DNA of 64,000 nt from Rhizophagus irregularis (lineage: Eukaryota): NCBI RefSeq assembly GCF_026210795.1, contig NC_089429.1, positions 2,232,001 to 2,296,000 on the forward strand, in the 5' to 3' direction. Of this stretch, positions 1 through 39,700 are shown piece by piece. A program made the position numbers and the translations under genes. Below the pieces are notes generated by a model that saw only the letters and a list, made by a program, of their open reading frames with translations, had not been told where the DNA came from and did not search any database. Position 1 is the first letter of the stretch, and every line of letters starts with the position of its first letter.

Positions 1-1672
1 GTCTCCATCACTCCTCTTCATCTTCCTATCACTCCTTTTTATCTATCCCTCATCATGTCCTATTTCTCCTTTTTGTTTCCTATCACTTCTCATTATTCTT
101 TTTTACTCCCTTTCATCTTCTATTACTTTTCATTACTCCATTGTTATTTCATTTTTTATTAGCATCTTTCTTCTTGATCATTGTAATTTACTTATCTTTT
201 CTTTTATTTGTATCACTTCATTAAAAATAAAATACAGTGATTTTTTTCTTTAAAATCGTAAATGTGTGATTTAAATTTTAATATTTGCAAATAAAATTTC
301 ATTAGACAAGATTATTTTGAACAAATGTGTTTGAAAAAAAAAAAAATTTTTTTAAATATCTTTTGCGATAAAATTTTAAGTTTAGCCGATCAAAAATTAG
401 CTAAGTTGAAAAATCAGCCATCAGCCGATTAATAAATTTACTCTATATTGTACATCATGTGACTATTTGAAAAAAAACCCGGGCGACAATCGCCCAGGTG
501 ACGTTTAGCATATATTACGCCAATCTTAAGCTTATAACCAATTTAAGAATAATAATAAATGAAATGAACAGATTCTAATACATTTAATTGTTCAAATATT
601 TTTCCTTTGATACTCATTTTACTCGATAAATTATTAATTTAACTAAACCATTTGAATTAAAATCTTTATTCAAAAATCTGGTGATTATTTAGAGAATTTC
701 GAATATAAAATTGATTATAATAACCTATTATTAAATCAACAATTTTTTCAATTAATTAATTATAAAATATTGTAAAAATATCAATTTTTTTGATTTTATG
801 AATTTGAAAATCAAACTATTTATCCAGCGTTCAATTTCATCTTTCTATCAACGTCGGTCAATTTTCCTACATGTTACTTGATTTTTTTTTTAAAAAAAAA
901 ATAATAATTTTGTAAATATATTTAATATAATATTTTATTTCTTTATTTAATAATAATAAATTTAAAAAAAAAATTTGGGAGGAAAGAAATCGGTTTAAAA
1001 AAGGGGGGAAAATAAGTACCGAAAAAAATTCTGAACAATAAAGGACAATAATTCGGTCAAAAAAATAAAATAAAATAAAATAACAATACGGTCTCAATAC
1101 AAAAAAAAATCGATCTTAAAAGACCGAAACAATAGGATTATTTAATAAAAAAAAAATGTTTAAGTTTGGAAAAAAAAATTAAACCTAAACGGGAAAAGAA
1201 TGAGAAAAAAAAATAAAAAAAAGGAACCAAAAAAAGCTAATAATATTTGAAAAAAGAAAAAAATAATCCAAAAAAAAAATCCCGATTAAGGTAGAATTTC
1301 ATTAACTGAAATTATTGGAATGCACACGGATCGTATGGCCCGCCATAGTTACAAAAAGGTCGGTGAAAAATCATCATGATATCTATATATATATTTTCTT
1401 TTTTTTGTTAAATTATTTTTTTTATTAAAAGAAACGTTAACGTTTCTTTCCTTTTCCATTTCACTTTTCTTTAACGAAACGTCAAAAAACGTTTCGAAAA
1501 TAATTTTTTTTTCACATTGTTTTAATCTAACGTTCCGATTTTTTTTTATTTCATTTTTTAGCGAATATATATATATAGATATCATGGCGGTCGAATAGTT
1601 TTTGACCATTCACGGGTTTTAATTATATGGCATGGGATTTCAAGTTACACAATTCAAACTATTTATACATAC

Positions 1673-4600
1673 CTAGGGGATAGATAAATAACGGGGGGGC
1701 CAACTCATGGTTACACAACTATGTTGGATCATGGATTGAACTGAAGTCATATATAAATTACTAATATTTAATATGACGATCCTTACAAATGTAAAATATT
1801 AATGCCTTCGATTTCACTAAAAATGAAACAATTGTGAGACAAACAGATCATGCCATAAAGATACGTTGCTCATCTATATACAAAATGAATTTTATCGTTG
1901 TCGCGCTTCTAGTTTTTAAAATAAACACGATCAAGGTATTTCAATTAGCAAAATTTAACGAAACTTCAAGACAAGTTAAAAATGGTAATAATAAAAAACT
2001 GTTGCTGTGAGTTTTTTTTTAAATAATATTGAAAAATCTTGCATATTTAGAGTAAAAGAAAACGGTCATTTGAGAATATTGAAAGTGAATCTACTAAACA
2101 ACAAAAAAATGTAGAGTCATTACAAGAACTTGTGCGCGTTCGACCAGATCTTAAAGGAAAAAAAATATATTTCTTTCCAAATTTGAAAAAATATTTTGAA
2201 GGTGTAATTTTTTATGAGACAAAAGAAAAAAAAGCTTATATATATAGTGTTATTAATGATCAAAAATATAGGTCATTTTTTCAATGGATGATTGGACTAA
2301 GAAATCGAGGATTATTTAAAGGTCATCGATCAGCTCTTGCAACTATTTTTTTGGAGCCTAATCCTACTAGTCCACCAATTGCATCAATCTTACGTACTGA
2401 ACCAAATTCATATTGGAAGACAGTTACTTACACAAGTATCCAAGATATTATGTCCTTAATTCAAAGAGAAAGTTTAGCTGGAGGGAAATTTGTAGGGATT
2501 ATTATGCATGAGATTAGTGATGGCCTTGAACTTCACTTTTTTGGTAAAAAGAAAAGATTAGAAAAGAGGTTGATAATTTTTGCTCAGGGTGTTTTTCTCG
2601 ATTATAAAGTTTGGATACTTGATCAAGTATTGCAAGAAGTAGATCTTCCTTTTCCCGTTAGAGCAATTAAAAGAACTATTGACGAAATAAGTAGTCTTAT
2701 TCAATATGTTTTTTCTCTTAAAGTTTGTTATGGACAAAGTACTGTTGGTATGTAATTTACAATTAAATTATTAATGTATTATATTTTTTTTCTTTACATT
2801 AAGAATATTTAATTTTAGGATTTGAAGATATAATTCAAATTCGAGGAGATCAATTGGTTAGCAATAATAAAGAGCATACCCCCTTTGCTTTTTTAGAAAA
2901 TAAAGGTCATCCAAATGAAGTATACCGACATATTAATTGCAAATTTATAATAAAAGATGGAAATGTATGTGAAAATTGCCAAAAAGTTTATAAAACAATG
3001 CAACAAATTCGTAGAAGGTATTTAGGTGGTGTAAATTCTGTGAAAAATGTGCATGTCTCAAAGAAAATTCTTATAGAAAAAATTGAACGTCAAAAAAAAC
3101 TTATTAAGTCACAAAATGTAACTATTATAAAAATAAGAAATTGTTTACAAAAGAAAATAGAGAAAGAAGAGGGAGAAATATCAAACAAAATGGCAAATAT
3201 AGCCCATACTGTTATTAATGATATCACAAACAAAAAGATAGATATTTCAAATCTTCATCCTATTTTTCAGGAACTTATTCGTATTCAGAGTGAAAAGCCA
3301 AACGGAACAAGATACCATCCAATGTAAGATTTTAATTATTGCATTATTTTCATTATTTTATTAAAAAATTTCGTATATTTAATTTTCTTAATATAGGTTT
3401 TTACGTTGGGCAATATCAGTATATAGCAGATCTGGAAAAGCGGCTTATGATGCAATGAAAACAATAATGCGTCTACCATCCATTTCTACACTTAAAAGCT
3501 ATATAAATGAAAGTGAAAAATGTTCAGGATGGCAAGATGAGACTGGATTTCAAATATTAGAAAGTTTAACAGCAAATAATATTTGGGGATATGGGCGAGT
3601 TGGATACTTTTCACATGATTCTTTTAAAATAATAAACAAATTAATTAATTTTGTATGCATTTCAAAGTTAAATAAGAACAATTTTACCTTTTTGAATTTT
3701 AAAAGGTCTTCTTTGGAGTCAACGTGAAAACTGTTATGTTGGATATTTAGATTTTGAGAATGAAATGCAAAACTATCAATCATTTGCCTTACAATGTCAA
3801 AATGAGATTCATACAACATTTGATAGAAATAATTCACTACCTAATTCTACAGCTGAAAAGCAAGAACAAAGTCTTGCAACGCAAATTCATCAAGTTGTTT
3901 GGCATTCAGCAACACATAACTTTGCTTTTCCAGTTGCTTATTATGGTATTAATATAATTACAGCACATAACCTGAATGCTTTATTATTTAATCTTGCATC
4001 TAGATTAGAATGTATTGGCATACATACATATGGTTCAATTTGTGATGGTGCAGGAGAAAATAGAACTCATATAAAAAGTTTTGACTGGTATGCATCAACC
4101 TGGTCTTCTGGAGATGTTGTGGAAGTTAATTTTAATAAAGATAAAAAATCATTTCATACAGCAGAAATTATAGATAGTAATTCTGAAAGAACAAAATTTA
4201 CTGTTTGTTTATATAATTGTAATAAATCTGATAAAATTACAATTGAACGAACCTATATACGTCCTCCAATGCCTTTAAAATTGGAATGGAATGTTAATGA
4301 ATTATGTGAATTTAGAAGTCCAAATGATAATCAATGGTATTTAGGAAAAATAACCAATTTTGATTCAATTGAATCAACGTTATCTGTTGAAATTATTAAT
4401 GCAAAAGGGGGTCATAAAGATTGGAAAGTTTTTAATTATCATATTGATAAATTTCTTCGACCTGTTTATGATAATCAAAAATTTTTAGCAAACCATAAAA
4501 CCATTAATCCTATTACAGGAGAAGAATGGTTTTTTATTAGTGATCCAACACATGTATTTAAAAAACTCAGAAATAATTTAGCAAAAAGCCATATTGACGA

Positions 4601-7239
4601 AAAAAATTCCAGAGAAATCATGTATAATGGAAAGGAAATTAGCTGGAAGCATATAAAAGGTGTGTATGAACATACACAACGACATGCAACAGCAAAAGCC
4701 ACAAAACTTACAAAGAGGCATATATGGCTTACATCATGGAGTAAAATGCGTGTTGATCTTGTGGAACATACATTATCAAAGGAAGTTGAATGTGCATTAG
4801 CGTCTATTAAAGAACTTAAAGATATATCAGAAGGAACAAGGGTAAGATTTTATTAATAATATATATTATGTTATAATTTAATAATTTAAATTAAACATTT
4901 AATTTTTTTAAAGGAATTCATTAAATATGCACGAAAATATCGTGAAATAATGCATAGTAAGATTGGTTTTCGCTCTATAGAAGATCCTCGTATTAAAACC
5001 TTAAAAGAAATTCGTAATTGGTTTGTAAATGGTGATAAACAAAAAGTAGGACCTATAGAATGGATTTCACCACAATGCCAATTTGACTTAATTTTATCTA
5101 TTAATGGGTTTCTTGAAATGTTAGCCTTTATTTTAAAGAAATACCCAGGATCAATGATTCAACCACGACGCATTTCACAAGATATGCTTGAAGGTCTTTT
5201 TGGCACTATTCGTGAACTTGGAGGAGACTCTTCAACACAAACACTTAAATCTTATGGACATGCTTTAAATAAATACCAAGTTACGGCATTAGTTTCATCT
5301 GAAATAAAAAGTGTTAATTATGGAATAGCTAATTCTACAGGAACTGGTATTACTTCTTTAACAAGAAGGTATATAGTATTATTTAAAGTTTTAATAATAA
5401 ATGAAACATATTAATTAATTATTTTAATTTATTAGAGATTATCGAAAGGATAAAAAATACCATGAAGAAAATAAAGAAAATATTAATGTTTATCAAAAAT
5501 ATAATACCCGTTTATCTCAATTATCAACTTTTTCTCGTGGTATTTTTGAAAACCTTCTTGATGATAATTTAATTATGGGAAGATTTAAATCTTTATCAAA
5601 ATCAGTTAACAATAATGTTAACTATGAAAATATTAGAGTTTATGATCTTCAAACTGAGCGATATAATCTTATAGAAGTTTTGCTTTATTTAGATTCTATT
5701 GATAAATTATTACAGTCATGGCAAAATATTATTAAAAATATAGCTCACGAAGCTATTCCAAAAAAGATTGGTGTTCAGTGGTTGGCTACTTGGAGTTCTC
5801 ATTTTGAACTTTACTTGAATAATTATCAATGTTCTGGCATCTGGTATCAGGAATTTCTAGCAGTTACCAAGTTACATCCTTCTTCAACCCAAAGACTCGT
5901 TGCATATTTACTTCTACAAAAAGTAATTGAACATACGTTTAAAAAAAAAATAATTGAGAAAGATCAAACTGCAGATTGTAATCTAGTACCTGAAAATATT
6001 ATTGTTTTAGAACCAGCTGAAGCATCAAAATTCTCCTATATTGTTGGATGGGTTGTTTATAAATTAACTAAAAGTGACAATATAACAAAATCGCACCCAC
6101 AATTCAAAGCCATTTGCGCTCACCTCAAAGTTCTAAATTCGGAACAAGTGGTCTATGAAGAGGATGTTAGATCTCAAATAACAAATGTAATTCCTGGCCA
6201 AGAGTTTCTAGAATTCATGTATAAGATGGAATCATTAATTCTTATATTATTTGAGAAACATAAGGAATTTGGACCACATATTCTTCAATATATACACAAT
6301 AGTTTACTTGATAATTTGCCACTGTTACAATCTTTTAACATTCTTCTTGATCTTGCTAGCCAGCAGATTTTAACTTGTGAAAGTGTAACAACTGAAAATT
6401 ACAAGTTAAAAGATGAAGTTAGGAATTTTCTTTATGAGCGTATTATTTCCATATATATGAGAAGTAGACAAAAATCATGGCGAAGGTTTAATAATCTTAT
6501 TCCTGAAAAAGGGACTACAAGCCTTCGTGAGAATTTAAAATCTTTCTACAAAGATACTCAAAACATCTCAAAAAATGAAAATAAACCTCCCTTAATGAAA
6601 AAAGAGAGTATTCCACAGAATCCGTTGCTTGGCTTAGAGCAGCTTCGAATTTGGGCAAAACTAGATAATGCTGAAGAAGTATTTTTAAAGATATTTCAAG
6701 TAGCAGAGTTGCAATGGTTACTCTGGGCGTTTGGAGATAATGTTAAAAATAAAAGAAAAAAGACGTTAATATCTTTGATTTTTGATCACCTGAAAAAAGG
6801 AACTCAATTCTGTGAAGAGGCAATATCAAAAGGACGAATATTTGCATTGTAGACTACTGTAGAATAGCACAAAAGATATGTAAAAAATAAAATTTTAAAT
6901 CAAAATGTATATAATAAAGCATTTTTTTTGAAATTCGGATTAAGTTTCATTTTTTAGCAATTTTTTGTGAGAAAAAAGTGACCTGTAGAAAGCAGTAATT
7001 GTCTAATTTGAATAAAACCACTTCACATATGTAAAACAAGTATAAAGGATCTTAACTTTTAAGATCGGTTGCTTTTCTATGTATGCGTGTCGAAAAAATT
7101 AAAAAATTTTAAGATTTTCGCACTATTTAATATGTGATTTCGATTGTGTAACCAATTTTATTAAGACTTCAGTTCGGTCAATTATTGATCAGTCTGTGTA
7201 ACCATGAGTTGGCCCCCCCGTTATTTATCTATCCCCTAG
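1673..7239 (+). mobile_element. Full-length P-element-superfamily DNA transposon (5567 bp)
   Basis: Perfect 45-bp TIRs CTAGGGGATAGATAAATAACGGGGGGGCCAACTCATGGTTACACA at 1673-1717 and 7195-7239; 7-bp TSD TACATAC at 1666-1672 and 7240-7246; encloses a P/THAP9-type transposase gene. Confidence 0.95.
2051..6852 (+). CDS. P-element/THAP9-like DDE transposase, multi-exon (start uncertain, possibly ATG 1885; one splice donor appears damaged)
   Basis: Exons ~2051-2747, 2819-3323, 3397-~3630, 3706-4841, 4914-5368, 5436-6852. P-family motifs: AYDAMKTIMRLPSISTL, FSHDSFKI (D1), CDGAGEN (D2), FISDPTHVFKKLRNNL (DxxH), KLTKRHI..SKMRV, RISQDMLEGLFGTIRELGG (E), FSYIVGWVVYKL. Confidence 0.88.
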
Positions 7240-8019
7240 TACATACTAGTCTAAACGTTACGGTTACACATGTATTTTTTTAGTTATATAGATAGATATA
7301 TAGAGATTTATTTAATATTCATGCACTAAAAAATGTCATATTTATTGTAAGGATACAAAAATTAACCTTATCAGTTATATATTTTTTTTAAAAAAAAATA
7401 ATCATCAAAAAATTATATTTACAAAACGTGTACAAAGGCTGGGTTAAACCCATTTTCAAAAAAAGGGATTTTAACGTTGTGATCAATTAACATTTCTGTT
7501 TATTAGCTAATAGAAATATTCACTTAACATCACTTTCATTAATTCTCTTTTTTCATTGGAAATAATGAACTTACATTTTATGATATTCTATTTACTACTT
7601 ATTTGCTTTATAATTACATAGTAATCAGGGAATCCCCTTTTTAATCAGCAAAGGTTACTCACAAAGACATATCCTAATAAACAGAGTTGAAACAAGTTTT
7701 TAAGAAAAGTTTATTTCTTTGAATTGATCGTCAACAAAATTTTCTAATTTCAGATTGGTAGTACAGGTTTACAAAATAATAGGATTGACGGAAAAATTAA
7801 GCCGCGAAATTTTCTAAATTGAGCAATTGCTTGAAATTTATGCATGATGGCGATTTCAATATGCATAATTATACAACTATTTCTATATAGAATATCCTTG
7901 ATTCTTTAAAAGAAAATTCCGTAGAATTTCACTTTGTTATTGTATCTTCATAAAATATAATATTGCTTTATAATTTTTACATTTAACTTTTATAATCTAT
8001 TTTCTTGAAATACAACATC

Positions 8020-10498
8020 ATGAACACAGATAGTAATTCATTTGATCCTACTCCAAAATTAAAATCTAGTCCTGTACCTGTTTTATTTATTCCTTTTAAA
8101 AATAATGAGGAAAACTGTAATTATTGTGGAATTGAATACTCCAAGTCACTTGAGCGTTACCAAAAATATTGCAAATATTGTTTATTTTGGTATATTCAAT
8201 ATATAACGAGCAATAATACATACTTGGATGTACGTATAATGACAAACAATTCTCAGTGTATTAAACATAAAACAACCAGAAATAATTTTTATACCGCAAA
8301 CATTCAAGAATGGTGTGAATATTGTTCCGAGATTTTATATTTTACACAAGTAGTCATAGAAAATTCAAATTGTAGGCACCATGATTTTAGTAAATACTGC
8401 GTAATTTGTCGTTACGAGAAGCGGTTATCAGGTTATCAGATTTCTTCTGGATGGGTAGAATCAACTTTGACTAAAAAGTCCATTCCGATTCTATATTTAC
8501 CATGGTGGGATAGTCTTAACCAATGTGTAGTTTGTGATAAAGAACTTAAATATATACACCAAGAGTCAAAATCTTATTGTCAAAAATGGTGTTCATATTG
8601 CTTTATAATTTATACTGGATGTAGGCATTGTTTAACAACAAATATTATTTTTGGAATTGCAGATCAATCTCAATGTAAGAAATGCTCAAGAATTTCATTC
8701 ATTAGAATTGATATTACAGATATTGAAAGTGGAAATTTCATTATAGAAGAATTTCTTGCTTCTACAAGAATCAACAATAAGCAACTCCATTCTATTGTTA
8801 ATTATGAGACGATTTTCGATACATCAAATCCATTTTATACTTATGAGTTTATTAATAATAAACTTCGTTTAAGTCTACATGAAAAAGTAATAAAGTGGAT
8901 TCCATATTCTCAAATTAAGAATTTAAAGAAAATAGCGGAAGGAGGATTCAGTATTATTTATAAAGCAACTTGGTTGGGAACTGATGTTGCTGTAAAAAAA
9001 TTACATGATTCACAAAATATCAGTAAATACTTTTTAAATGAGGTAATATTTATATTTTATATACTTGCGATGGGTTTTTTTATTAATTAACTCATTGTAT
9101 TTTAGTTAAGATCACTTTATCAATGTGATGATGACAATGATTGGGTTATTGGCTATTATGGCATTACACAAGATCCTATAGCAAAAGAATACATGTTAAT
9201 ATTGGATTATGCAGAAGGTGGAAATTTACATGATTATTTGCAAAAGAACTTTATAAATATTAGATGGGTTGACAAATTTTTGATTTTGCAAGGAGTTTCA
9301 TTAGGGTACATTATTTTAATACATTAATTATTACTTATAGTTACATTAAATTTATTAACTACTAAGTCTTTTATTTTAGACTCGAAAGAATTCATAATAA
9401 TAATGTTATACATCGAGATCTTCATAGTGGAAATATGCTATTGTCAAATTTTTGGAAAGTTGGAGACTTAGGATTATCACAGCCTGCAAATAATACATTA
9501 TCAAATAATGAAATATATGGAGTAATACCTTATATCGCACCAGAAATATTTAAGGGTGCTGCATTTTCAAAAGAATCTGATGTATATAGTTTGGGCATGA
9601 TTATGTGGGAACTTACAACAGGTTGTAAGCCTTTTGCTAATGTTGAACATGATCATAATCTTATCTTTAAAATTCTTGATGGAGAACGACCTAAAATTAC
9701 AGAAGATACTCCTAAATTTTATGCTAATTTAATGAAAAAATGTTGGGATTCTAATCCTTCAAAAAGACCAACTATTGTTGAAATGTATAATTATATTTCC
9801 AGTTGGAGTAATACGCGTGGTACCATAGAATATAGACAGGCAGAAAACAAAAGATTGGAATTGATACGATCAAAGAAACTTGGGCCTGAATTTAGTGAAA
9901 AGTTTCATCCAAAAGCAATTTTTACAAGTAGAGCATTAAGTTCTTTGATTTCTAAAGCTTCAACTATAAACTCTTCTTCAATGATCTCATTTAATGACAA
10001 ACAAGGTATGTTATATGTTATGTTATTAAGTAATAATTAGCCATTAGTGAAAATTTGATTAGACGATATGATAATAATAATTGAATTTACTTCTTTAAAT
10101 TTATATTAACTTAGATGGCTATTATTATTTTTTAGAATATATTACCAGAGAATATGAAATTGATATAAATAATAATCAAAGGTAATAATTAATATAATGT
10201 ATATAGCTTCAATTAAATAATAACATCATACATTTTTTAGTTCATCCACACAAAATACAAATTCAGCTACTCAAAGCTTAACTGTACCAATAAATTCTTC
10301 AAGAAAGCGTAATTTTGAAAGATTGGAGAATGAATCGAATGAAACTCAAAAAAATAGTAAGTAAACATTTCTATTTACGCATATAATAAATAATATTTAT
10401 AGGTTAACACGTCAACAATTCAATATATATATATATATTTTTTAACTAAAATAGGAAAATATATTAAAGTTGATAATTTAGAAGATGAATATTGTTGA
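8020..10498 (+). CDS. TKL-type protein kinase with N-terminal multi-CxxC Cys-rich region
   Basis: ORFs 8005-9090 and 9435-10040 plus GT-AG joined exons; IAEGGFSIIYKA, VAVKK, HRDLHSGN, GDLGL and YIAPE motifs; short 3' exons end at TGA 10498. Confidence 0.9.
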
Positions 10499-12576: not shown

Positions 12577-14341
12577 ACACAATTCAAATGATTTATACAA
12601 TCTCTAAATTTTTTTAGTTATATAGATTATATATTTTTTTCATCATTTTATTATTATTGATTAATTAATAATAGGATTATGATGTTGATTAATTATTTTC
12701 ATTTAATTATTTTAGGTTTGAAACATATCCACCTTTGCTCACCATGAATGATTTGCGTTAATCTTATAAAAGTTTAACTGTTTAAATTGTCCGACAATAC
12801 GAGTCACGTCGCGCATATAGCCGATGGAACTTTAGGACCAGGTGTAACAACTGTAACATGTTAACATAATAATGATCATATGATTATACCGCTTCAGACG
12901 CTCAGTTATCCAATTAGACCAAAGTCATAAGGAGGTTCGTACTTAGTTTCACTTTTTTCCTACAAACAAATCAGTACGAATAATATGTTGTAAAAGGTCA
13001 ACGTTGATCGGACAGATGATGAATTTAGTATGTAAACAAAATATAAACAAAAATAAAATTAATAAAACTATTATATTTCAACAGTAATTACTTATAGTGA
13101 AATTATCAAATTTATAAATGTATTTATCTAACAAAAATGATTTTATACTTGTCAGCACTGAATTTGTGCATATAAATAAAAAAATAAATAAATATTGATT
13201 TCTTTTTTATTATTAAATTAACAAATAAAACTATAAAAATGCAATCATATTATACATATGTTCATCGAAAGAGTAAGAATGTTATTCAACTAGGATAAAA
13301 TGTTATACAATTATTTACAATGAACCTGGCATCGGAATTTTTTTACTAATAATATAACATTTTAACAAATAAAGATATTATAATAATATAACTAATAATA
13401 TAAATGACTAACAATTAACTAATCAACTAATATGTATGTAATAAATAGTATTTTAAAAAACCAGAAGAATAAATAAAAAAAAATTTTAAAGTATGCGATT
13501 TTATTGACCTCCAATTAGTTTACATTCAATTAAATGATTATGAATCTATAGATCGTGGATTAGGCTACAATGTTACATTAGAAAATTCTATTGAAGGATC
13601 AAATATTCCTTTTATCATAAATCTTTTATTAAAATTTTATAAACAAGATTTTAAAATTACGAAAATTACTTAAATTAACAACTAAAAGGAAAACTAGAAA
13701 ATCATCATTTTATATAATAGAAAAACAAATTAAAGAAATGAAATTCCATTAAATTCTAATAGTGAAGTAAATACTCAAGTTAAAATAGAATTATCTGAAT
13801 GGAATAAAAATCAAAATTATTGTTGTGACTATAAATGACAGAAGACATGTTGATGTTAATCATAAAATTAAAATTAAAATTCATCGTGAAGGGATTTTTA
13901 CTAGTATAAATATTAAATTAGACATAGTTTTTTCTGACTAGATACGCATTATATATATACTGTTATTACTATGTGCGCCTGACGTGACTAGTAACATGTA
14001 TAGATTTACGATATGTCACTGTCGCGTTTTAAAATGTTTAAATTATATAATTTATTTGAATTCATAATTTATATTTGATAATTATACATAATATTATATT
14101 TGAATAAATATTAAATATAGTATATATAATGACCAATTATTTGTTAATTTTTTTTCATTATAATTATAATTCGTATTATAATTATGATTATAGTCGTTAT
14201 AATTTTGATCATCGTTATAAGACGTTACTGTAATCGTTATTATTATAGTAATCATTATCGTTATATATAATTACGATTTTCCAAACAAAATATTTTTAAT
14301 TTCAATTTCTTCGACTTTGACACGATTGAACCTCTATAAAC

Positions 14342-15874
14342 ATGATTGTAAACCCATTTTTAAATGAATTATTACAACTCATTTTTAATAACCTTGATGA
14401 TGATATTGGTTCTTTATTTTCATTATTATTTGTAAATAAAAATTGGTGTGAAAATGCCGTCCCCATCTTGTGGAGAAGACCATTGAGTTATGATCGTCAT
14501 AATTTTGAAGAAACAACGAAAATCAAAAAAATAATTCCAATACTTCTTTCACAAATCTCATTACAAGAAAGAATCGATTTAGAACTTAAAGATATTCCAA
14601 CTAAAACTATGTTTGATTATGTATCGTTTATTAAACAATTTGACATATCCTTATTAGATTGGTTAGTTTGTGAGAAATATACCATGGCAATAAGCAAAAC
14701 TATTTTTATGAAAACAAAAAGATTAGATGAATTAACATTTTTATATGAAGCATATGGAGATGATCTTTATGAAAGTATTTTTACATTACCAAAATCACAA
14801 ATGTTACTTAATCATATCACAAAGTTGAAGTTTAATTCTACTGGAAAATATTCACTTTTTCCTAATTTATCAATTTATGTTAAAAATATCAAATATCTTT
14901 CCATTAATTTTTCCTGCAGTAGTAATAATCATAAAAATGTTGTGAAATTTTTTGAGGATCTTATTGAATTTATTTCTGTTCAAAATAATTTGGAATATTT
15001 TATCATAAATATTAGATCTAATCTTTTTAGTATTATGCATATGGAAAAATGGAGAGGACTTTTCTTTAAACTTTCTGAATCTCATTCTATAAAGTATATA
15101 ATGATTAAAGGTTGTATTGATGGAGAACAAACTGATTTGAATTTTTTATCTAATTGTTCAAATCTTGAAGAATTACATTTAGATTCTATGATTATTGATT
15201 ATGATAAATTGGTATGCTTAGAAAATATTTATCTACCAAAATTATTTTCTTTCTCATTATTAGGTTGTTATTTCATTTCTCCGAAATATAATTATGTTTA
15301 TAAAACAAATTTATGGCTAACTTATATTACAGCATTTTTAATGAATCATAGTAATACTTTGAAGGAATTAAAAATAATTTTAATGCTCGAAACTGTCAAA
15401 CGAAATTATTTGAAATCAATCCTTGCCGATTTATCATTATATTGTCAAAATCTTACATTGATTGGATTAAACTTGGATCATATTTTTGGTTATTATGTAG
15501 AATATAGAGAGAAAGTTGATAAAGTTGATGAAATATTTTTTAATTTACCTAAAGAATTATTATTGATTTTTATAAGATCACTTCCTAAAACTTTAAAATC
15601 TCTTTCATTTGAAGGAGTAATTGAACTTGATTATTTAGAAGAAATTATAAAAAATTATATTGATAATTTAATTAATTTAGATTTCTATTATTATACATGT
15701 GTTAAAGTATTAGAAAGAGATATTGATGAAATGACAAAAAATAGAAAATTAAAACTTAGTTATGATAAAAAAAGAATTAGTATTAATTGGACATCAATAT
15801 ATAGATATTTTTTAGATTTTAATTACCCTTGGTTAGCTAGCCATTCAATGGACGGCAAAGTATTTAACTCATAA
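14342..15874 (+). CDS. F-box-like / RNI-LRR-like protein (Glomeromycota-expanded type)
   Basis: Intronless 510-aa ORF; N-terminal NELLQLIFNNL..LFSLLFVNKNWCENAVPILWRRP F-box-like motif followed by LxxLxL-type repeats. Confidence 0.75.
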   Translation: MIVNPFLNELLQLIFNNLDDDIGSLFSLLFVNKNWCENAVPILWRRPLSYDRHNFEETTKIKKIIPILLSQISLQERIDLELKDIPTKTMFDYVSFIKQFDISLLDWLVCEKYTMAISKTIFMKTKRLDELTFLYEAYGDDLYESIFTLPKSQMLLNHITKLKFNSTGKYSLFPNLSIYVKNIKYLSINFSCSSNNHKNVVKFFEDLIEFISVQNNLEYFIINIRSNLFSIMHMEKWRGLFFKLSESHSIKYIMIKGCIDGEQTDLNFLSNCSNLEELHLDSMIIDYDKLVCLENIYLPKLFSFSLLGCYFISPKYNYVYKTNLWLTYITAFLMNHSNTLKELKIILMLETVKRNYLKSILADLSLYCQNLTLIGLNLDHIFGYYVEYREKVDKVDEIFFNLPKELLLIFIRSLPKTLKSLSFEGVIELDYLEEIIKNYIDNLINLDFYYYTCVKVLERDIDEMTKNRKLKLSYDKKRISINWTSIYRYFLDFNYPWLASHSMDGKVFNS

Positions 15875-31267: not shown

Positions 31268-32802
31268 TTATTTTTTTTTAATGATTTGAAATACTTCATA
31301 ATCTTCTATTAGAAATTTATCTTCACTGTCTCTTATCTTTTTCTCATAATATTTTTGTTTACAGTAAACCACATTAAAATTTAATCCAGCTGCTAATGAA
31401 CCTGATGGATCTAATGAAATTTTTGAACCTATTTTAAGGTCGCCAAAACATGGACCTGCACCTATGTGGCAAACTATTGCTTTATCTATATCTTCTACAT
31501 TACTTAAGAATGCATTTTCAAGATTACTCTTACTTTTAAAAGAAAATAAAAAACTATATTGAGTTTGAATCCAACCACTAACAGAATCCCATGTTAAAGG
31601 ATTATATCCACCAACAATTTCTTCTGTTCCTTTTATTTTAAGAAAAGTGACAGTATTATTCTTATGATCACATAATTCATGAAATTCTTTAGGTTTAAAT
31701 CCATCTCTACTTCCTCTTAACAGAAGCTTAAATTCGTATGGTAAATATAATTCTCTCAAATATGTAAATTTACTATTATTATCCAATTTATTAATCCATC
31801 TTGAAACAATTGAAATAATATTTAAATTAACAATTTTTGAATCAATAGTCATATCTGTTTTTATATTTCTTGGAAGTGAAATATTATCATCATAACTTGA
31901 TTCATAATCAGGATCCATATAAGAGTTTAATAAATCATTATAAAGTTGATGATTTAAAAGTTTTTTATAAGGACTTACTTTATGTAAGAATTCTTTAGAT
32001 GATAAACTATAAAATCTAATCAAAGGTATACAATTCTTTAAAGTATTTTCCATCGCATTGAAATCATCATCCATCCAAGTATCAGAATCTGCATTAAGCG
32101 TAGGATTTTGTGTAATTCCCCATTGTAATACATGTTCCCAAATTTCAACTTCTTTCATTTGTAAATCATCTCTTTTAATAATTGGAACTAATAATTTTTC
32201 AGGAATTGAAGTGAAATCAGTTGAATTAAATAATTTTTCTGGTGAATCAGCAATAATATTTAAACAATAATTTTGGAGTTCAGAAAAATTATTAGATTTA
32301 AAACTTGTTCGATGTGTTAATTCAAAATGTTGTTCTATCCACTCGGATTCGTTTAAAATTAAGTAATTTTGTAAATGACCAACTAATTCCTGAAGAAGTA
32401 GTTCATCTGCAGCTACTAAAATTTTAAGAATATCTGAAGTTTTCAACTCGTCTAACGAAAGAATACCACCATAAATATACCTATATATTAAAAAATTTTT
32501 TTTAATTAAAAAACTCTTTATTAGACGAGTAATTGTAATTAACGTTACCTTAAAATAATTTGAAAGATTTCTGATGATATATTTGGTAATTTAATATGAG
32601 ATAGGACATTATTATTTTTTTTATTTGAAGCTAAAGTTCTTCGTAAATATGGAGAACGGTAATATAATATATTCATATGTGCACGAAATATTTTAACGTT
32701 AGGATCTTCACCGACTTCAATCGTAATATCATAATATTCACTATCATCATCTAATAATTCAATGTAATTTTGACTTAGTTTTGAAAAAAATTCCGATGTC
32801 AT
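31268..32802 (-). CDS. BTB/POZ-BACK-TLDc domain protein (2 exons: 32802-32549, 32480-31268)
   Basis: DITIEVGEDPNVKIFRAHMNILYYRSPYL (BTB); LIR/EVEIWEHVLQWG (BACK-like); LLLRGSRDGF..FHELCD..GGYNPLTW..GPCFG..YEVFQI (TLDc). Confidence 0.92.
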
Positions 32803-33260
32803 TTTTTAAGTGGGAAAGAGAATGTAGATATGTTATGTAGTGTAACCATTACTACAGGTAGATTCTATAAAGAAAAAATTTTTTATTATTGTGCGACTTA
32901 CAACGTCACGAGTTAATTTTACTGTGTTATAGTTTGTTTGTTTTCAGTGCCAATTTAAGTTTTTGATACGTAAAATACTTTCCTTTATTTTAAAAAAGTG
33001 GTTGTACGACTTGTATGTGTACATCATAATTAATACATGCAGATGACCGATGCTAATCCTGATTTATAGCTAATTATGTTTATTGTGTTAGGGGTAATCA
33101 TTTGATGATCGACATAATGCAAAATTCGGGAGTTTATTTTATTTCCCCGAAAAAAAAGGCAAAAGTTAAATTTAAAAAAAAAATTCAAACATTCCCCTAC
33201 TTTTTTCTCTCTCTCTTTTCTTTATTACATTTTCTTTTTTTTTTAAAAAAAAAATAAAAT

Positions 33261-34991
33261 ATGACATGTTCAAAAATATTTTCAGGAGATTTACCTGAAT
33301 TAATAAACGAAGTTATAAAATATTTTCGTCATGATTATAAAACATTACATTCATGTATATTGGTTAATAGATTATGGTGTCGTCTAGCAATTCCATTATT
33401 ATGGGAAGATCCATTTTCAATAAAACTTCCTAAAAATTATCGTTTTATTGAAATTTATTTAAATAATAATTTAAATGAAGAAGATAAAACAAAATTAAAT
33501 GAATATGGTATTAATTATAATAAATTATTATTACCATCAAATACATCAAATAATTCATTATTTAATTATCCTAATTTTATTAAATGTTTAAATACATGGA
33601 AAATAATATTTTCTATTGAACAATGGATTTTAACTATTATAAATGTTAAAGCAGGATTACAATCCACCAATTATTTTTTAAAAAATATGTATCCAAATAA
33701 TTTTGATCAAAAATTAAATTCTTCAAGATTAATTTATAAATTATTATTTAAAATATTTATTGAAAATGAAGTAAAATTACATACTTTTGAAGTTATTGTT
33801 GTTAGAGATATTGATCATGATTGTTTTAATGATGCTTTTAATTTAATTTTACAAAATCAAGATTTTATTTTTAATATAAAAAATTTAAAACTTCAAAGAA
33901 TTGCAAATGGATCAAAAATTTTCCCTTTTTTAAAATTTTTATATTCAAATTGTAATTCAATTAATTCACTTTATTTTCAATTCCCAAGATTTAATAATAA
34001 TAATTTATTAACTGAAGATTATTTATTAAAAATAATTAATTCACAAAAAAATCTTAAAAAAATTTCTTTTGAACGTAATTATTTATTTAAAGGAAAATTT
34101 TTTTTATCATTAAAAAATTCAAATTGTTCAAATACTTTAAATACCATCATATTTTATAGGATAGATTTTAAAAAAATCATCATTTCAAATGAAGAATTTG
34201 AAAATTTAAATGTTTTAGAATCAATTCATATACTTTATTGTTATTCTTTAAATTCAGATTTTATTCAACAAATTATTAATCTTAAAAAACCATTTAAATT
34301 AAAATCTTTATTTATGGATATTATGTTACAAATTGATTCTTTAAATTTATTATTACAAAAATCTGGTTCTTATTTAGAAAATATTGGTTTTGGCTCTTCT
34401 ATAAGTAATGAATTAAGAAAACAATTTGATTTATTTATGAAATATTGTAAAAATATTAAATTTTTTGAATTACCAGGTTTTGATAATTTAAATATTTATT
34501 TATCTTTTGATTTAATTAAAATTCTTGATCAAAATCTTAATTATCTTTCTATAGATTTTCATTATTATCTTGATTATTATTATCATCATAATTTTTCAAA
34601 TGATGGTGATATGGAACCTAGTTCTATAGTATTATTAAATTTGGGTCAAATTCTTCCTCATAAGTTAGAATATTTAAATTTATCTCTTAAATTTGATTTA
34701 AATAATTTAGAAATATTTTTACAAAATTCTCAAAATACTTTTATTAAAAAATTATTAATTAGAAATAAAATGCAAGAAGGAAGTCTTAATATTTTACCTT
34801 ATATAAAGAAATATATTATGAAAAAAGAAAGGGTTAAATATTTAGCTATAATGGAAGTTTATTTTGAAAAAAGGGAAGATTTATCTTTTATGAAAGATGA
34901 GGTGAAAGAATTTGAATCTTATAATATTAAAGTTCAAAATTATGATGATTTATATATTCAAGTTTATGATTTGATAAAAGAGATGGATTAG
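33261..34991 (+). CDS. F-box-like / RNI-LRR-like protein
   Basis: Intronless 576-aa ORF starting MTCSKIFSGDLPELINEVIKYF..LHSCILVNRLWCRLAIPLLWEDPF. Confidence 0.85.
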   Translation: MTCSKIFSGDLPELINEVIKYFRHDYKTLHSCILVNRLWCRLAIPLLWEDPFSIKLPKNYRFIEIYLNNNLNEEDKTKLNEYGINYNKLLLPSNTSNNSLFNYPNFIKCLNTWKIIFSIEQWILTIINVKAGLQSTNYFLKNMYPNNFDQKLNSSRLIYKLLFKIFIENEVKLHTFEVIVVRDIDHDCFNDAFNLILQNQDFIFNIKNLKLQRIANGSKIFPFLKFLYSNCNSINSLYFQFPRFNNNNLLTEDYLLKIINSQKNLKKISFERNYLFKGKFFLSLKNSNCSNTLNTIIFYRIDFKKIIISNEEFENLNVLESIHILYCYSLNSDFIQQIINLKKPFKLKSLFMDIMLQIDSLNLLLQKSGSYLENIGFGSSISNELRKQFDLFMKYCKNIKFFELPGFDNLNIYLSFDLIKILDQNLNYLSIDFHYYLDYYYHHNFSNDGDMEPSSIVLLNLGQILPHKLEYLNLSLKFDLNNLEIFLQNSQNTFIKKLLIRNKMQEGSLNILPYIKKYIMKKERVKYLAIMEVYFEKREDLSFMKDEVKEFESYNIKVQNYDDLYIQVYDLIKEMD

Positions 34992-37169
34992 ATGTTTTAC
35001 TTTGCGTATTTTTGCAATTTAGTATTTCTTTTACTTATATAGAGAATTTCCATGTTACGCGTATATCGAGACTTTTTAAATTCAATTTAGCATAAATAAA
35101 TTTAGTATTTCTTTTTATCGTAATAAAGTATGTACTTTATAAGTTGATAGAAACCTGAGTTATTATTTAAATAAATAAAATTTGTAGTGAAATTAGAAAA
35201 CTTTATATGTCATAACATTTATTAATGACAACGAAAAATATATTTTTTGCTATAGACTGTTCTAATTAAAAAATAATTATAGCAAAGTCACATGGCCTTT
35301 AAGATTATTTAAAATTTCTTGGATAAAAATTTACTTCATACATCTTTAAAGAATAAATATTTACAGAAACTAAAAATAAGTTAACATATTAATCAAGGCG
35401 CCTACGAACTAGGCGGAAGATAGTTTTAGTCGTAATTCGTGAACTACTTTTCGACTACCAAAATATCGCTTATCACAAAATTACATACCAGTTAATTAAC
35501 CTGCTAATAAAAGTTTTTTTAATTTATTACGGATCAAAAAAAAAAATATTAAATTTTTTATAGGAAATACACGTACTTATTTATTAATATAAATGTATTA
35601 TAAAAGTGGTGAGATTGCGAATTCATTGGATTGGATCGGATAAAATTCAACCCAACCCATAGAGGCTCCATAGAGGATTAGATTTTTGAGAAAAATTTTT
35701 TGGTTAAAAAATTTATGTTAGTTATAAGCGGAGTGATGTCACTGATGTGGGTAGATAATTTAAATTAACTGGTTAATTTATCCGGTCAAATTATGTATCA
35801 TAAAGATTATGATAATATTATAGCGAACTAAAATTGTAACGGAGAAAATGTTTTTGTATATCCTTAATATATACAGTATGTTTTACATAATATAATTATA
35901 TTTCAACGAAAATTTTTATGGGTGCGTTTGCAAATTCAAATGGGTCTAGTACGATTGACTATATTGTACCACTGTAACGTCTGAAATTACCTAGTGAAAT
36001 TATTAATTTTGGGCGCAGTCTTGAACATGTCTGTTTTTAATTTACTGCGGTCCGGAATGACCATAATATTTTCATTGGTTATTTTATTATTTTATTTTTA
36101 TTGGTTATTTTATTTTATTATTATGGGACTACGTCCGCGATGACGTTAAACTAATTATTTTATTTGATCTATATAATTTTGCCAATTATATGAGATTTTG
36201 AAAAAGAGAAATTATTATTTTAATTGGTTATTTAATTTCCTTAAATATACTAGTTAAGTTTCATTTAGAAATGGGATTTAGAAATTATTTTCTTGAATTT
36301 TTCATTCTGTTATTTTTTTTTATTATGAAACTCGGGATTTGTTATAAATTTTATCGAATATAATAAAAGTTATTTTTGTAGCTAGTGGTGGCAAACGTCT
36401 TTATGACGGGCACAAGTCCTACACCACCTAAACTTCTTTAACCTTCGTGGTTAACCTTAACTGGTTCTAATAGTTGCGAGAATTCTATTTCGTAACATTT
36501 TTTAATGACGACAAAAATTATAAAGTGGACGGTCAAACTTTTGTAAATGTATTATACTCTTGATTTATTTCAGATTGAAGTAATTTCAAATTACTTCTTT
36601 TCGCTTAATACAGTATGTATTTTCTTCTCCAAAAGTAATCAAAAAGTAATCAAATTTTATCGAACATTACAATTTTAGATATATTATCTAAAATTTATGA
36701 CAAATAAATAAAATAAAATAAAAAACAAACGTCAAACATATATATTACAGTCAATTTTGATAAATAATAATTATGTAGTTGAATTTCAATTTTTTACTTA
36801 ATCTATGTACGTATTTCTTCCATTTTTAAATTTATCACATTTTATTTATAATAAATAATAAAGGAATGTGTTTACCAAAAAAAAAAAGAATTGTTCAATA
36901 ATTTGATTTTTTTTTTCCTGTTGTGCGACGACGGATTAGTCTATTCATCGACGGAGAATTGAGCTCCGAAAATTACTATATTAAGTTGTATAATGGCGGA
37001 TCGCCAACATACATAATTGTATTTTTTCTATAGACGTTTGCAATTTACCGTAATTTTTTCTAAATAGAATTTTCTAGAATTTCTTCATAAAATATAAATA
37101 CCGTCGTTTAATTTTTACATCCAAATTTGAAGCCACTTTCTTAAAATATTATATATGTGGAAATAAGCA

Positions 37170-39700
37170 ATGGCTTATTCACATGAATTTTATGATCCAA
37201 AATTGAAATCTAGTCCTGTACCTATTTTATTTATTCCTTTTAAAAAAAACGAGGAAAAATGTAATTATTGTGGAATTGAATATTCCAAGACACTTAAATT
37301 TGAACAGAAATATTGTAAAAATTGTTTATTTTTGTATATTAAATATATGGGAAACAATACATGCTTGGATACATATATAAGTACAAATAATACTCAGTGT
37401 GTTGAACATAAAGCGACTAGGAATAGTTTTTGTACAATAAACATTCAAGAATGGTGTGAATATTGTTCTGCGATTTCACTCTTTACGCATTTAATCCCCA
37501 ATACTTCTTCATTAAATAATTACTCTATTTCACAAAGTATGTATGATTCTGCTACAAACTATGAGTGGAGGCTATTTTATTTAACTGAGTATGGTCAAAA
37601 ACATTATTACCAAATTTCCTCTGAGTGGATAGAATTGATATTGACTAAAAAGTCCATTCAAGTACTTTATTTATCATGGTGGGATAATTTTGATAAATGT
37701 ATGTTTTGTCTACAAGAATTAAAATATATACACCAAGAGTCAGTATCTAATTGTCAAAAATGGTGCCAAAAATGGTGTTCGCAATGCTTTATAATTTATA
37801 CAGGATGTAGGTATTGTTTAACAACAAATGTTATTTTTGGAATTACAAGTCAATCTCAATGTAAAAATTGTGAAAGAATATCGTTTATTAATATTGATAT
37901 TACAAATGTTAGCAGTGAAAATTGTATCATGGATGAATTTATTCTAACTTTTACAAGAAATGATACAGATTCAAACTCATTAAGGTTTATTAGATATTTA
38001 TATAGTAAAATGGTAAAATATTTAATAGAACGGATTCCATATTCTCAATTTAAAGATTTAAGGAAAATAGGAGAAGGAGGATTTAGTATTATTTATAAAG
38101 CAACTTGGTCAGATGATGGTACAAGGAATATTGACGTTGCTTTAAAAAAATTATTTAATTCACAAAATATAAGTAAATATTTTTTCAATGAGGTAATATT
38201 TGATATTAATATATCTTTCAATGTGCTTTATTCAATATTTAATAATATATTTATTCTAGCTAAAAGCACTTTCTCGATGTAATTATGCAACATTCGGAAT
38301 AATTGGTTTTCATGGTATTACACAAGATCCTATAACAGAAGAATATATATTGATAATGAAATATGCAAATAGCGGAAATTTACATAATTATTTGCAAAAT
38401 AATTTTATAAATATTACTTGGACTAGAAAACTGAGGATTTTAAAGGATATTTCAGAAGGGTATTTTCGTACTTTTTAATGTATTAATTTTATTATTTACA
38501 TTTAAGTTAATCAACTACCAATGTTTCTATATTAGACTTAAATATATTCATGGCAATAATTTTATGCATCGGGATTTTCATAGTGGGAACATACTATCAT
38601 CAATTCAATCTTGGCTAGCTAGAGATCGTCGGAGTATACTTCAAGATTGGCTAATTGGAGACTTTGGATTATCACAACCTGCAAATAGCACCTCACCAAA
38701 TAATGAAATATATGGAGTAATACCTTATATTGCACCAGAAATATTTAAAGGTGCTGCATTTTCTCAAAAATCTGATATATATAGTTTTGGTATGATAATG
38801 TGGGAACTTACAACAGGTTGTAAACCTTTTGCTAGTGTTGAACATGATCATAATCTCATCTTTAAAATTCTTGATGGAGAACGACCTAAAATTACAGAAG
38901 ATACTCCTGAATGTTATGCCGATTTAATGAAAAAATGTTGGGATTCTAATCCTTCAAAAAGACCAACTATTGATAAAATCTGCAACACTATTCTTGATTG
39001 GACTTGGACTGCTATGATTAATCTTCAATTTGAAACTATTATGGAATTTGAACGAGCTGAAAAAAAAAGACTGAAATTAATACAATTAAAGAAACTTGGA
39101 CCCGGATTTAGTGAAAAACCTCATCCAAACGCAATTTATACAAGTAGAGCATTAAGTTCATTAATTTCTAAATCTTCTACTATAGATTTTTCTTCAATTA
39201 ATTCAGTTAGTGCTAAACAAGGTATATTATATTAATGATTACTAACTCGCAGTCAGATATGATCTATTTATTTCATTTTTATATTAACTTAAATACTTTT
39301 TAGAGTATATTACAAAAGAATATGAACTTGATATAAATAAAGTTCAAAGGTAACTGTTACAATGAATAAAAATATTAATAATATAATAGAAAATTAAAAT
39401 TTTTTATTATGCATTCTTTAGTTCATCCACTCAAAATATAAATTCCGGTCAAGTCCCTAATCTTCAGCATCAAAATGTTAGTGGTCCATTAAATTATTTA
39501 ACTGCAAATTCTTCAAGAAAGCGAAATAATGAAGAATTAAATATTGAAACACAAAATAGTAAAAAAATTAGTAAGTAAAATTTTTTATTTACTAATACTT
39601 GTAGCATATTACAGTATCATGCCAATTTAAATTAATTTTCTTTTTAATTAAAATAGGAAAAAATATTAATACTGATGATTCAGATAAAGAACTTTATTGA
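37170..39700 (+). CDS. TKL-type protein kinase with Cys-rich N-terminus (paralogue of 8020-10498)
   Basis: Same exon pattern; GEGGFSIIYKA, VALKK, HRDFHSGN, DFG and YIAPE motifs; last exon ends at TGA 39700. Confidence 0.88.

Follow-up and report, generated by a model that had tools for sequence, protein, structure and literature searches.

Can a cut-and-paste transposase carry a chromatin-binding module inside its catalytic domain, and if so, what would the module do? A locus in the glomeromycete fungus Rhizophagus irregularis raises this question. Within a 64,000-nt stretch of contig NC_089429.1 (the window, whose coordinates are used throughout), a reading of the sequence alone had picked out a P-element transposase whose catalytic core is interrupted by a tandem Tudor/Agenet-like module, and had suggested that this module reads methylated lysine or arginine. 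We find that the architecture is real, conserved, and apparently undescribed: within the catalytic domain of a P-superfamily transposase there are one or two predicted Tudor barrels. The role in methyl reading is not supported so far.

A P-superfamily transposon in Rhizophagus irregularis

The element is a P-superfamily DNA transposon of 5,567 bp (1673-7239; Table 1). It has the terminal inverted repeats (TIRs) and the target-site duplication (TSD) of 7-8 bp that are expected in this superfamily; a TSD of 8 bp was rejected for the window copy, as the flanks do not fit. Contigs from three of the eight runs that we compared (X2, X7, and X12) contain an empty-site joint (1665 to 7240) that omits 5,574 bases, which is the 5,567-bp element plus one 7-bp copy of the TSD. 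Summed contig depth is high at both ends of the element, which indicates that the flanks are repeated in themselves, so the empty form may stem from other copies of the flanking repeat. We also note that the window element is nested in another repeat (roughly 1370-1672 and 7240-7400), with very high summed contig depth on both sides. The left flank contains a 24-bp inverted repeat (1375-1398/1563-1586), and loose contig ends are numerous at 1610, 7271, and 7382-7398.

TIRs related to those of the window element were present at 9 of 27 metagenome loci. Across the family loci, the right flank begins with GT in 5 of 7 distinct cases, and 2 read GTNNNAC. Two of the loci (L006 and L016) are near-identical, yet their right flanks differ. 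In L006 and L008, both TIRs are present and the flanks do not match; these are probably collapsed assemblies. The perfect TIRs, the intact TSD, and the different right flanks of L006 and L016 are indirect evidence that the family may move by GTP-dependent cut-and-paste.

The transposase gene has at least 7 exons, as judged from tblastn with homologs and from GT-AG sites. The whole DDE triad and the DxxH motif were found (SHDSF, CDGAG, SDPTH, and QDMLEG). On the catalytic exon, Pfam's TNP-like_RNaseH_N matches residues 50-128 (E = 4e-10) and TNP-like_GBD matches residues 286-375 (E = 3.6e-9), which places a GTP-binding insertion domain after DxxH. RNaseH_C also matches, at E = 1.3e-3, which is under its cut-off. 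A profile of the family matches the Drosophila P transposase (6P5A) at E = 0.005. When aligned to 6P5A, the family is identical or conservative at 5 of the 8 GTP-contact positions given in the available part of PMC7776569: K385, V401, S409, and D528 are kept, and K400 is replaced by R. The motifs, the Pfam matches, the alignment to 6P5A, and the ends of the element all bear out the original assignment to the P superfamily.

Pfam did not identify a THAP domain in the window's N-terminal exons, nor, in 26 family members, among the 25 Pfam families listed out of 36. A restriction of THAP domains to animals has been reported (PMC7776569, available part), so the absence of THAP argues against an animal P/THAP9 type but not against the P superfamily. 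In place of the animal THAP, the family has about 230 N-terminal residues (2051-2747) with 40-58% identity across its members. This region has no assignment in Pfam, the PDB, or the ESM Atlas; a possible likeness to RAMA/SAND-like DNA-binding domains was not supported by any of the three. It is a candidate for a new transposon-end-binding domain.

Table 1. Features of the transposon and its transposase gene (window coordinates).
Feature	Position	Strand	Basis
Left target-site duplication TACATAC, 7 bp	1666..1672	.	Flank comparison; empty-site joint in contigs
Left terminal inverted repeat, 45 bp, begins CTAGGGG	1673..1717	+	100% complementary to right arm
Likely start codon, then putative GT-AG intron 1985-2050	1982..1984	+	Sequence reading; homolog P0003 begins MSKRK, resembling the next exon
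Exon: conserved N-terminal region of no recognised fold	2051..2747	+	Family comparison; no THAP match
Exon: Cys-containing motif and predicted coiled-coil-like stretch	2819..3323	+	tblastn with homologs; splice sites from sequence
Exon: HTH-like region and first catalytic Asp (SHDSF, Asp 3617-3619)	3397..3629	+	Comparison with relatives
Catalytic exon: RNase H N-terminal half, second Asp, Tudor insert, DxxH, start of GTP-binding insertion domain	3706..4841	+	Pfam; exon end backed by the X16 spliced contig
Second catalytic Asp (CDGAG)	4044-4046	+	Motif
Tudor/Agenet barrel 1 and Pro-rich linker (predicted)	4101..4274	+	AlphaFold2; Pfam Agenet E = 1.5e-4; HHalign 96% to canonical Tudor repeats
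Tudor/Agenet barrel 2 (predicted), missing in the one-barrel sub-lineage	4287..4469	+	AlphaFold2; HHalign 97% to canonical Tudor repeats
DxxH motif (SDPTH)	4542-4553, Asp 4542-4544	+	Motif
Exon: remaining GTP-binding domain and RNase H C-terminal half, catalytic Glu (QDMLEG, Glu 5190-5192)	4914..5368	+	Pfam; homologs; X16 spliced contig
Last exon: long C-terminal region, conserved in the family	5436..6852	+	Homologs; X16 spliced contig
Right terminal inverted repeat, 45 bp	7195..7239	-	Perfect match to left arm
Right target-site duplication TACATAC, 7 bp	7240..7246	.	Flank comparison

Judging from motif labels, the neighbouring genes are kinase, F-box-like, and BTB-like genes, which we take to be typical of these fungi. 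Tyrosine-kinase-like genes with a Cys-rich N-terminus lie at 7996-10040, 37167-39235, 46084-47738 (minus strand), and 56282-58780 (minus strand); we presume that they belong to a kind that is expanded in AM fungi, and one of them appears to have a long coiled-coil tail. What we take to be F-box/LRR-like and BTB/TLD-like genes (14330-15874, 33258-34991, and 31268-32590 on the minus strand) are presumably also members of typical expanded AM-fungal families.

A predicted tandem Tudor module between the second Asp and DxxH

The two units do lie between CDGAG and FISDPTH, in a single open exon (an open reading frame of 386 codons, 3696-4853). Unit 1 runs from the W at 4101 to the end of IRPPMP at 4274, and unit 2 from 4287 to the end of FLRP at 4463. 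A spacer of about 165 amino acids had been claimed, as against a few dozen in Drosophila P, and this is what we count: the DxxH Asp lies 166 codons beyond the second catalytic Asp, versus 36 in 6P5A and 33 in the canonical P-like protein P0037 (counted from their alignment). The excess over Drosophila P is about 125 residues. Relative to Pfam, the insert falls between the RNase H N-terminal model (which ends at residue 128) and the GBD model (which starts at residue 286). The proposed likeness of the two units to each other is weak if they are compared as single sequences (93 of 2000 shuffles reach their score) but is clearer if they are compared as profiles (HHalign 82%, E = 1e-5).

On the window's barrel 1, the Agenet model of Pfam (PF05641) scores 22.6 bits (E = 1.5e-4; the gathering cut-off is 27 bits), and at E ≤ 0.1 it matches 14 of 45 members of the family, the lowest E being 2.8e-6. 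The close homolog P0055 has PF05641 in its precomputed annotation, and a few homologs have automatic names in UniRef and JGI that include "Agenet domain" or "Tudor domain", so the match was already latent in the databases.

AlphaFold2 modelled the insert, using 45 sequences, as two five-stranded barrels with a mean pLDDT of 82. The strands are at insert residues 10-13, 23-30, 36-41, and 49-53 in barrel 1 and at residues 72-76, 83-92, 97-102, 111-115, and 123-125 in barrel 2. The best Foldseek matches are plant tandem Agenet readers of H3K9me (7yta, 6ie5, 6ie6, 6ie7, and 5zwz; E = 6e-6 to 1.6e-5), followed by FMRP/FXR, the UHRF1 tandem Tudor, and SGF29. VIA, which is independent of Foldseek, compared the model with 48,161 chains and also gave 7yta (Z = 10.1, rmsd 3.5, 123 residues aligned); when the comparison was repeated, Agenet and FXR/FMRP were at Z = 10.3 to 9.7. 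Barrel 2 aligns to the SMN1 Tudor with Z = 8.9 and rmsd 1.8 over 57 residues (VIA). The same barrel fold also occurs in the non-chromatin proteins CarD, NusG, and UvrD (VIA Z = 6.6-7.9). Modelling the whole catalytic exon gave low confidence outside the insert (mean pLDDT 56), and 6P5A was not recovered among the Foldseek matches listed for that model.

Sequence searches of the PDB with the insert found nothing significant (best E = 0.27 in one, no hits in another, and TDRD1 at E = 1.4 in a third). A feature search of the ESM Atlas returned Agenet/Tudor clusters at 0.86-0.89, which we treat as a lead only. We also searched 1.84 billion representatives with a profile built from seven short family proteins, which is shallow, so distant relatives may be missed; there were 46 matches, 28 of them new. 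Among the 13 new matches that we inspected, 11 are fragments of the family and two (P0145 and P0161) are canonical multi-Tudor proteins, which match the insert profile through their summed repeats. P0145 and P0161 are made up of near-identical Tudor repeats of the SMN type, 8 in the former and 3 in the latter; the cages of these repeats are intact if their cage positions follow those of SMN-type Tudors.

Both structure and profile searches thus give Tudor-type barrels. The models have the SH3-like barrel of the Tudor/Agenet (Royal) family, with 4-5 strands and a short helix before the last (AlphaFold2, Foldseek, VIA, and HHalign at 96-97%), so the tandem Tudor/Agenet fold that was originally proposed stands as a prediction. 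In this prediction, the insert comprises a pair of Tudor barrels with a Pro-rich linker between them.

No conserved canonical cage in either barrel

In the available parts of PMC6208443 and PMC6318295, AGDP1/ADCP1 are described as binding H3K9me2 through a Tyr-Trp-Phe cage in the second Agenet barrel and a negatively charged surface. The first Agenet of AGDP1 binds unmethylated H3K4 by acidic residues and not by a cage (PMC6208443, same part). From these sources and from SMN-type Tudors, we defined the cage as three or four aromatic residues, at the end of strand 1, the start of strand 2, the end of strand 3, and in the following loop. We mapped these positions by profile alignment to the Tudor repeats of P0145 and P0161 (HHalign 96% and 97%), not on 3D coordinates.

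Barrel 1 has F, H, L, and C at the cage positions, and across the family these are F, W, or Y in 16/33, 11/33, 2/33, and 1/32 proteins. Barrel 2 has S, Y, and I, and the corresponding counts are 0/28, 21/27, and 0/28. Other aromatic residues of barrel 2 are nearly invariant: the starting W (28/28), the W of the WY motif (27/27), a Y or H (27/27), and an extra aromatic at the beginning of strand 4 (28/28). Across 35 sequences, the module has a median net charge of 0 (from -5 to +12), versus the negative surface of AGDP1. Since a canonical cage is not conserved in either barrel, the reading of methyl marks is doubtful.

The module is an old feature of the family

All of the named homologs from protein searches are from the Glomeromycota (Rhizophagus, Glomus, Diversispora, Gigaspora, Dentiscutata, Cetraspora, Acaulospora, Entrophospora, and Paraglomus). 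To survey the insert, we considered the 55 of 133 proteins (including the window's) that match both anchor motifs, and scored barrels with HMMs made from the family itself. Both barrels were detected in 43 proteins; 7 have barrel 1 alone, 2 have barrel 2 alone, and no barrel was detected in the remaining 3. At least one barrel is therefore present in 52 of 55, across nine named AM-fungal genera, and there is no clearly insert-free lineage among the 55.

Five of the 7 proteins with only barrel 1 (three from Entrophospora and two metagenomic) look like true one-barrel forms, with spacers of 91-111. The other single-barrel proteins and the three without a barrel are probably explained by gaps in automatic gene models. 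The one-barrel sub-lineage (P0014, P0015, P0018, P0078, and P0105), which has barrel 1 alone, lends itself to comparisons of function. A core tree of 36 selected proteins separates the four one-barrel proteins that it includes from the two-barrel ones (UFBoot 91). The root falls among the one-barrel proteins, but it is on an outgroup branch of length 3.2, so it is unreliable.

For the codon model, we used 22 of 28 DNA sequences, leaving out two near-duplicates and four partial loci, and masked stop codons. These loci were retrieved with the barrel-2 pattern, so they cannot reveal insert-free copies. Omega is 0.092 for the core, 0.250 for barrel 1, and 0.231 for barrel 2, and omega = 1 is rejected for each barrel (2dlnL = 90 and 107, respectively). 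The variable loop has an omega of 0.43 (17 sequences). When dN/dS is counted pairwise, the figures rise to 0.18 in the core, about 0.6 in the barrels, and 0.9 in the loop. Purifying selection acts on the barrels, more weakly than on the core. The insert persists across deeply diverged AM-fungal genera, and its loops tolerate short deletions. The Tudor module is a fixed, old feature of the family, not a recent capture by the window copy.

A probably dead copy and a spliced sibling

In all of the relatives that show the region, the exon with the first catalytic Asp ends in ...KIQK and is followed by a GT donor. This donor is deleted in the window copy, and without it the reading frame meets a stop at 3725-3727. 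We rejected an assembly error, as contigs from two runs (X2 and X7) agree with the window at this place. Because the splice donor just after the first catalytic Asp is lost, the window copy is probably dead; judging from its sequence, it probably cannot make transposase.

A sibling copy is found in one 2,082-base contig of run X16, which is classed as an RNA run by a tool's guess only. It is 98.5% identical to the window copy (17 differences in 1,139 bases) and is spliced at the predicted introns (4840 joined to 4913, and 5366 joined to 5434). The contig holds the whole Tudor insert. The insert might have been an intron or another spliced-out segment, but we rejected this: it is open in frame, it is under purifying selection, and it is present in the spliced contig. 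Small shares were also seen in RNA runs X18 and X19, and we give these no weight for expression. Of the 29 places within 3701-6819 where the window copy and the sibling differ, 24 are C>T or G>A, which is the pattern expected from deamination of methylated cytosine.

What might the module do?

We see nearly an even chance that the module serves as a chromatin tether for the transposase during target capture, and does so without a classic methyl-lysine cage. A Tudor domain would have been captured once from a host gene, into a surface loop that comes behind the helix next to the second Asp; it would then have been duplicated in most lineages, or else one lineage would have lost its second barrel. 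Histone tails, the nucleosome surface, or flanking DNA might be what the barrels bind, and this binding would bias the chromatin in which the transpososome lands. The catalytic core would still select the 7-bp site (GT...AC-like, as in Galileo). Tethering is consistent with the matches to tandem chromatin-type folds, conservation in 52 of 55 proteins, purifying selection, and the retention of the insert in the X16 contig. There are also precedents: reader domains of Gypsy integrases are associated with targeted insertion (PMC12477816, available part), and the first Agenet of AGDP1 binds H3 without a cage (PMC6208443, available part). Against tethering, the cage positions are not conserved, the median net charge is 0, unlike the H3-binding surface of AGDP1, barrel 2 is dispensable in one sub-lineage, and selection is weaker than on the core (pairwise dN/dS of about 0.6). 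More tentatively, this old fungal P lineage may direct its insertions towards one chromatin state, for example that of the repeat-rich B compartment of AM-fungal genomes, by means of a non-canonical pocket in the Tudor pair.

The original prediction was of a reader of methyl-lysine or -arginine, which would aim the transposase at marked chromatin much as chromodomains do for chromoviruses. Such a reader would need a rearranged pocket, which might for example be built from two conserved residues of barrel 2: the Tyr/His in strand 2 and an additional Trp with which strand 4 begins. The near-invariant aromatics of barrel 2 fit this, as do the best structural matches, which are H3K9me2-bound tandem Agenet pairs with the cage in the second barrel. 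However, aromatics never occur at two of barrel 2's three canonical cage positions, and the one-barrel lineage does without this barrel entirely; we consider a methyl reader unlikely. The placement of the cage comes from profile alignment and not from 3D coordinates, so a non-canonical pocket may exist. Somewhat unlikely, in our view, is that the module acts within the transpososome or with a non-histone partner (binding of end or target DNA, assembly of subunits, or docking to a host protein) and has no part in choosing chromatin. The lack of a cage, the neutral charge, and the sharing of the fold with CarD, NusG, and UvrD would all suit this, and with THAP undetected and reportedly confined to animals (PMC7776569, available part), recognition of the ends needs other domains. 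But the module is not basic overall, its tandem layout best fits chromatin-type Tudor pairs, and the large conserved N-terminal region could bind the ends instead. Finally, the module might be a folded passenger in a permissive loop, conserved merely so that it folds and spares the catalytic domain. An omega of about 2.5 times that of the core, a degenerate cage, and a varying number of barrels are what a passenger would show. Yet the module has been retained over deeply diverged AM-fungal genera even though short loop deletions are tolerated, and the only three barrel-less proteins among the 55 look like gaps in gene models, so a passenger is very unlikely. We keep tethering without a classic cage as our working proposal.

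Whatever its ligand, the module shows that a P-type transposase can accommodate a folded domain of 60-125 residues in the loop behind its second catalytic Asp, and this loop offers itself as a place where targeting domains could be built into transposase tools. Should the module steer insertion, it would be a mechanism for a DNA transposon to persist in the repeat-rich, two-compartment genomes of AM fungi. Our data also document a widespread P-superfamily lineage in the Glomeromycota, which is transcribed if X16 is the RNA run that it is guessed to be.

Comparison with known systems

Full-text literature searches listed no description of a Tudor or Agenet domain in a DNA transposase, or of the insert as a standard feature of fungal P elements; one may exist in Repbase, subscription journals, figures, or supplements. 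The available part of a 2017 survey of fungal DNA transposons (PMC5751038) lists P elements solely as single occurrences in fungi and does not mention Tudor or Agenet. The terms "P element" and "Tudor" are also absent from the available text of two papers on transposable elements of R. irregularis (PMC11075540 and PMC8647823) and, by term search, from that of PMC13465315.

The closest well-studied relatives are the Drosophila P element transposase (6P5A) and THAP9, which share the DDE triad, DxxH, and an RNase H domain split by an insertion domain that binds GTP. Besides the longer spacer and the lack of a THAP match, our family differs from 6P5A at F443, D444, and N447, which align with R, Q/E, and H. 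The window element also has a 7-bp TSD (8 bp in Drosophila P), ends that begin CTAGGGG, at least 7 exons, and a long C-terminal region. Galileo, a member of the P superfamily in Drosophila, has a 7-bp TSD as well (consensus GTANTAC; PMC4168063, available part), to which the right flanks of our family loci come close. Galileo differs in its TIRs, which are long and fold-back against 45 bp here, and in having a THAP domain; the literature that we consulted does not describe a Tudor insert in it.

The module itself resembles AGDP1/ADCP1, AGDP3, the tandem Agenet of FMRP/FXR, and the tandem Tudor of UHRF1, which also have two barrels (Z = 9-10.3, rmsd 3-5, 104-127 residues aligned). For ADCP1, a Pro-rich linker is described too (PMC6318295, available part). 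Identity to these proteins is just 9-25%, their three-residue cage and acidic surface are not conserved in our family, and our module is inside the catalytic domain of an enzyme.

Chromatin-reader domains are known from the integrases of LTR retrotransposons, and we found none for a cut-and-paste transposase. Gypsy-10_Ec32 of Ectocarpus was called the first reported transposable element with a Tudor domain in 2025 (PMC12477816, available part). Like the chromoviruses, it fuses an integrating enzyme to a Royal-family domain. If targeting is true, our family would be the DNA-transposon counterpart of the chromoviruses: these and Gypsy-10_Ec32 are LTR retrotransposons with a single C-terminal domain, whereas the elements described here are of the cut-and-paste type and have one or two predicted barrels within the RNase H fold.
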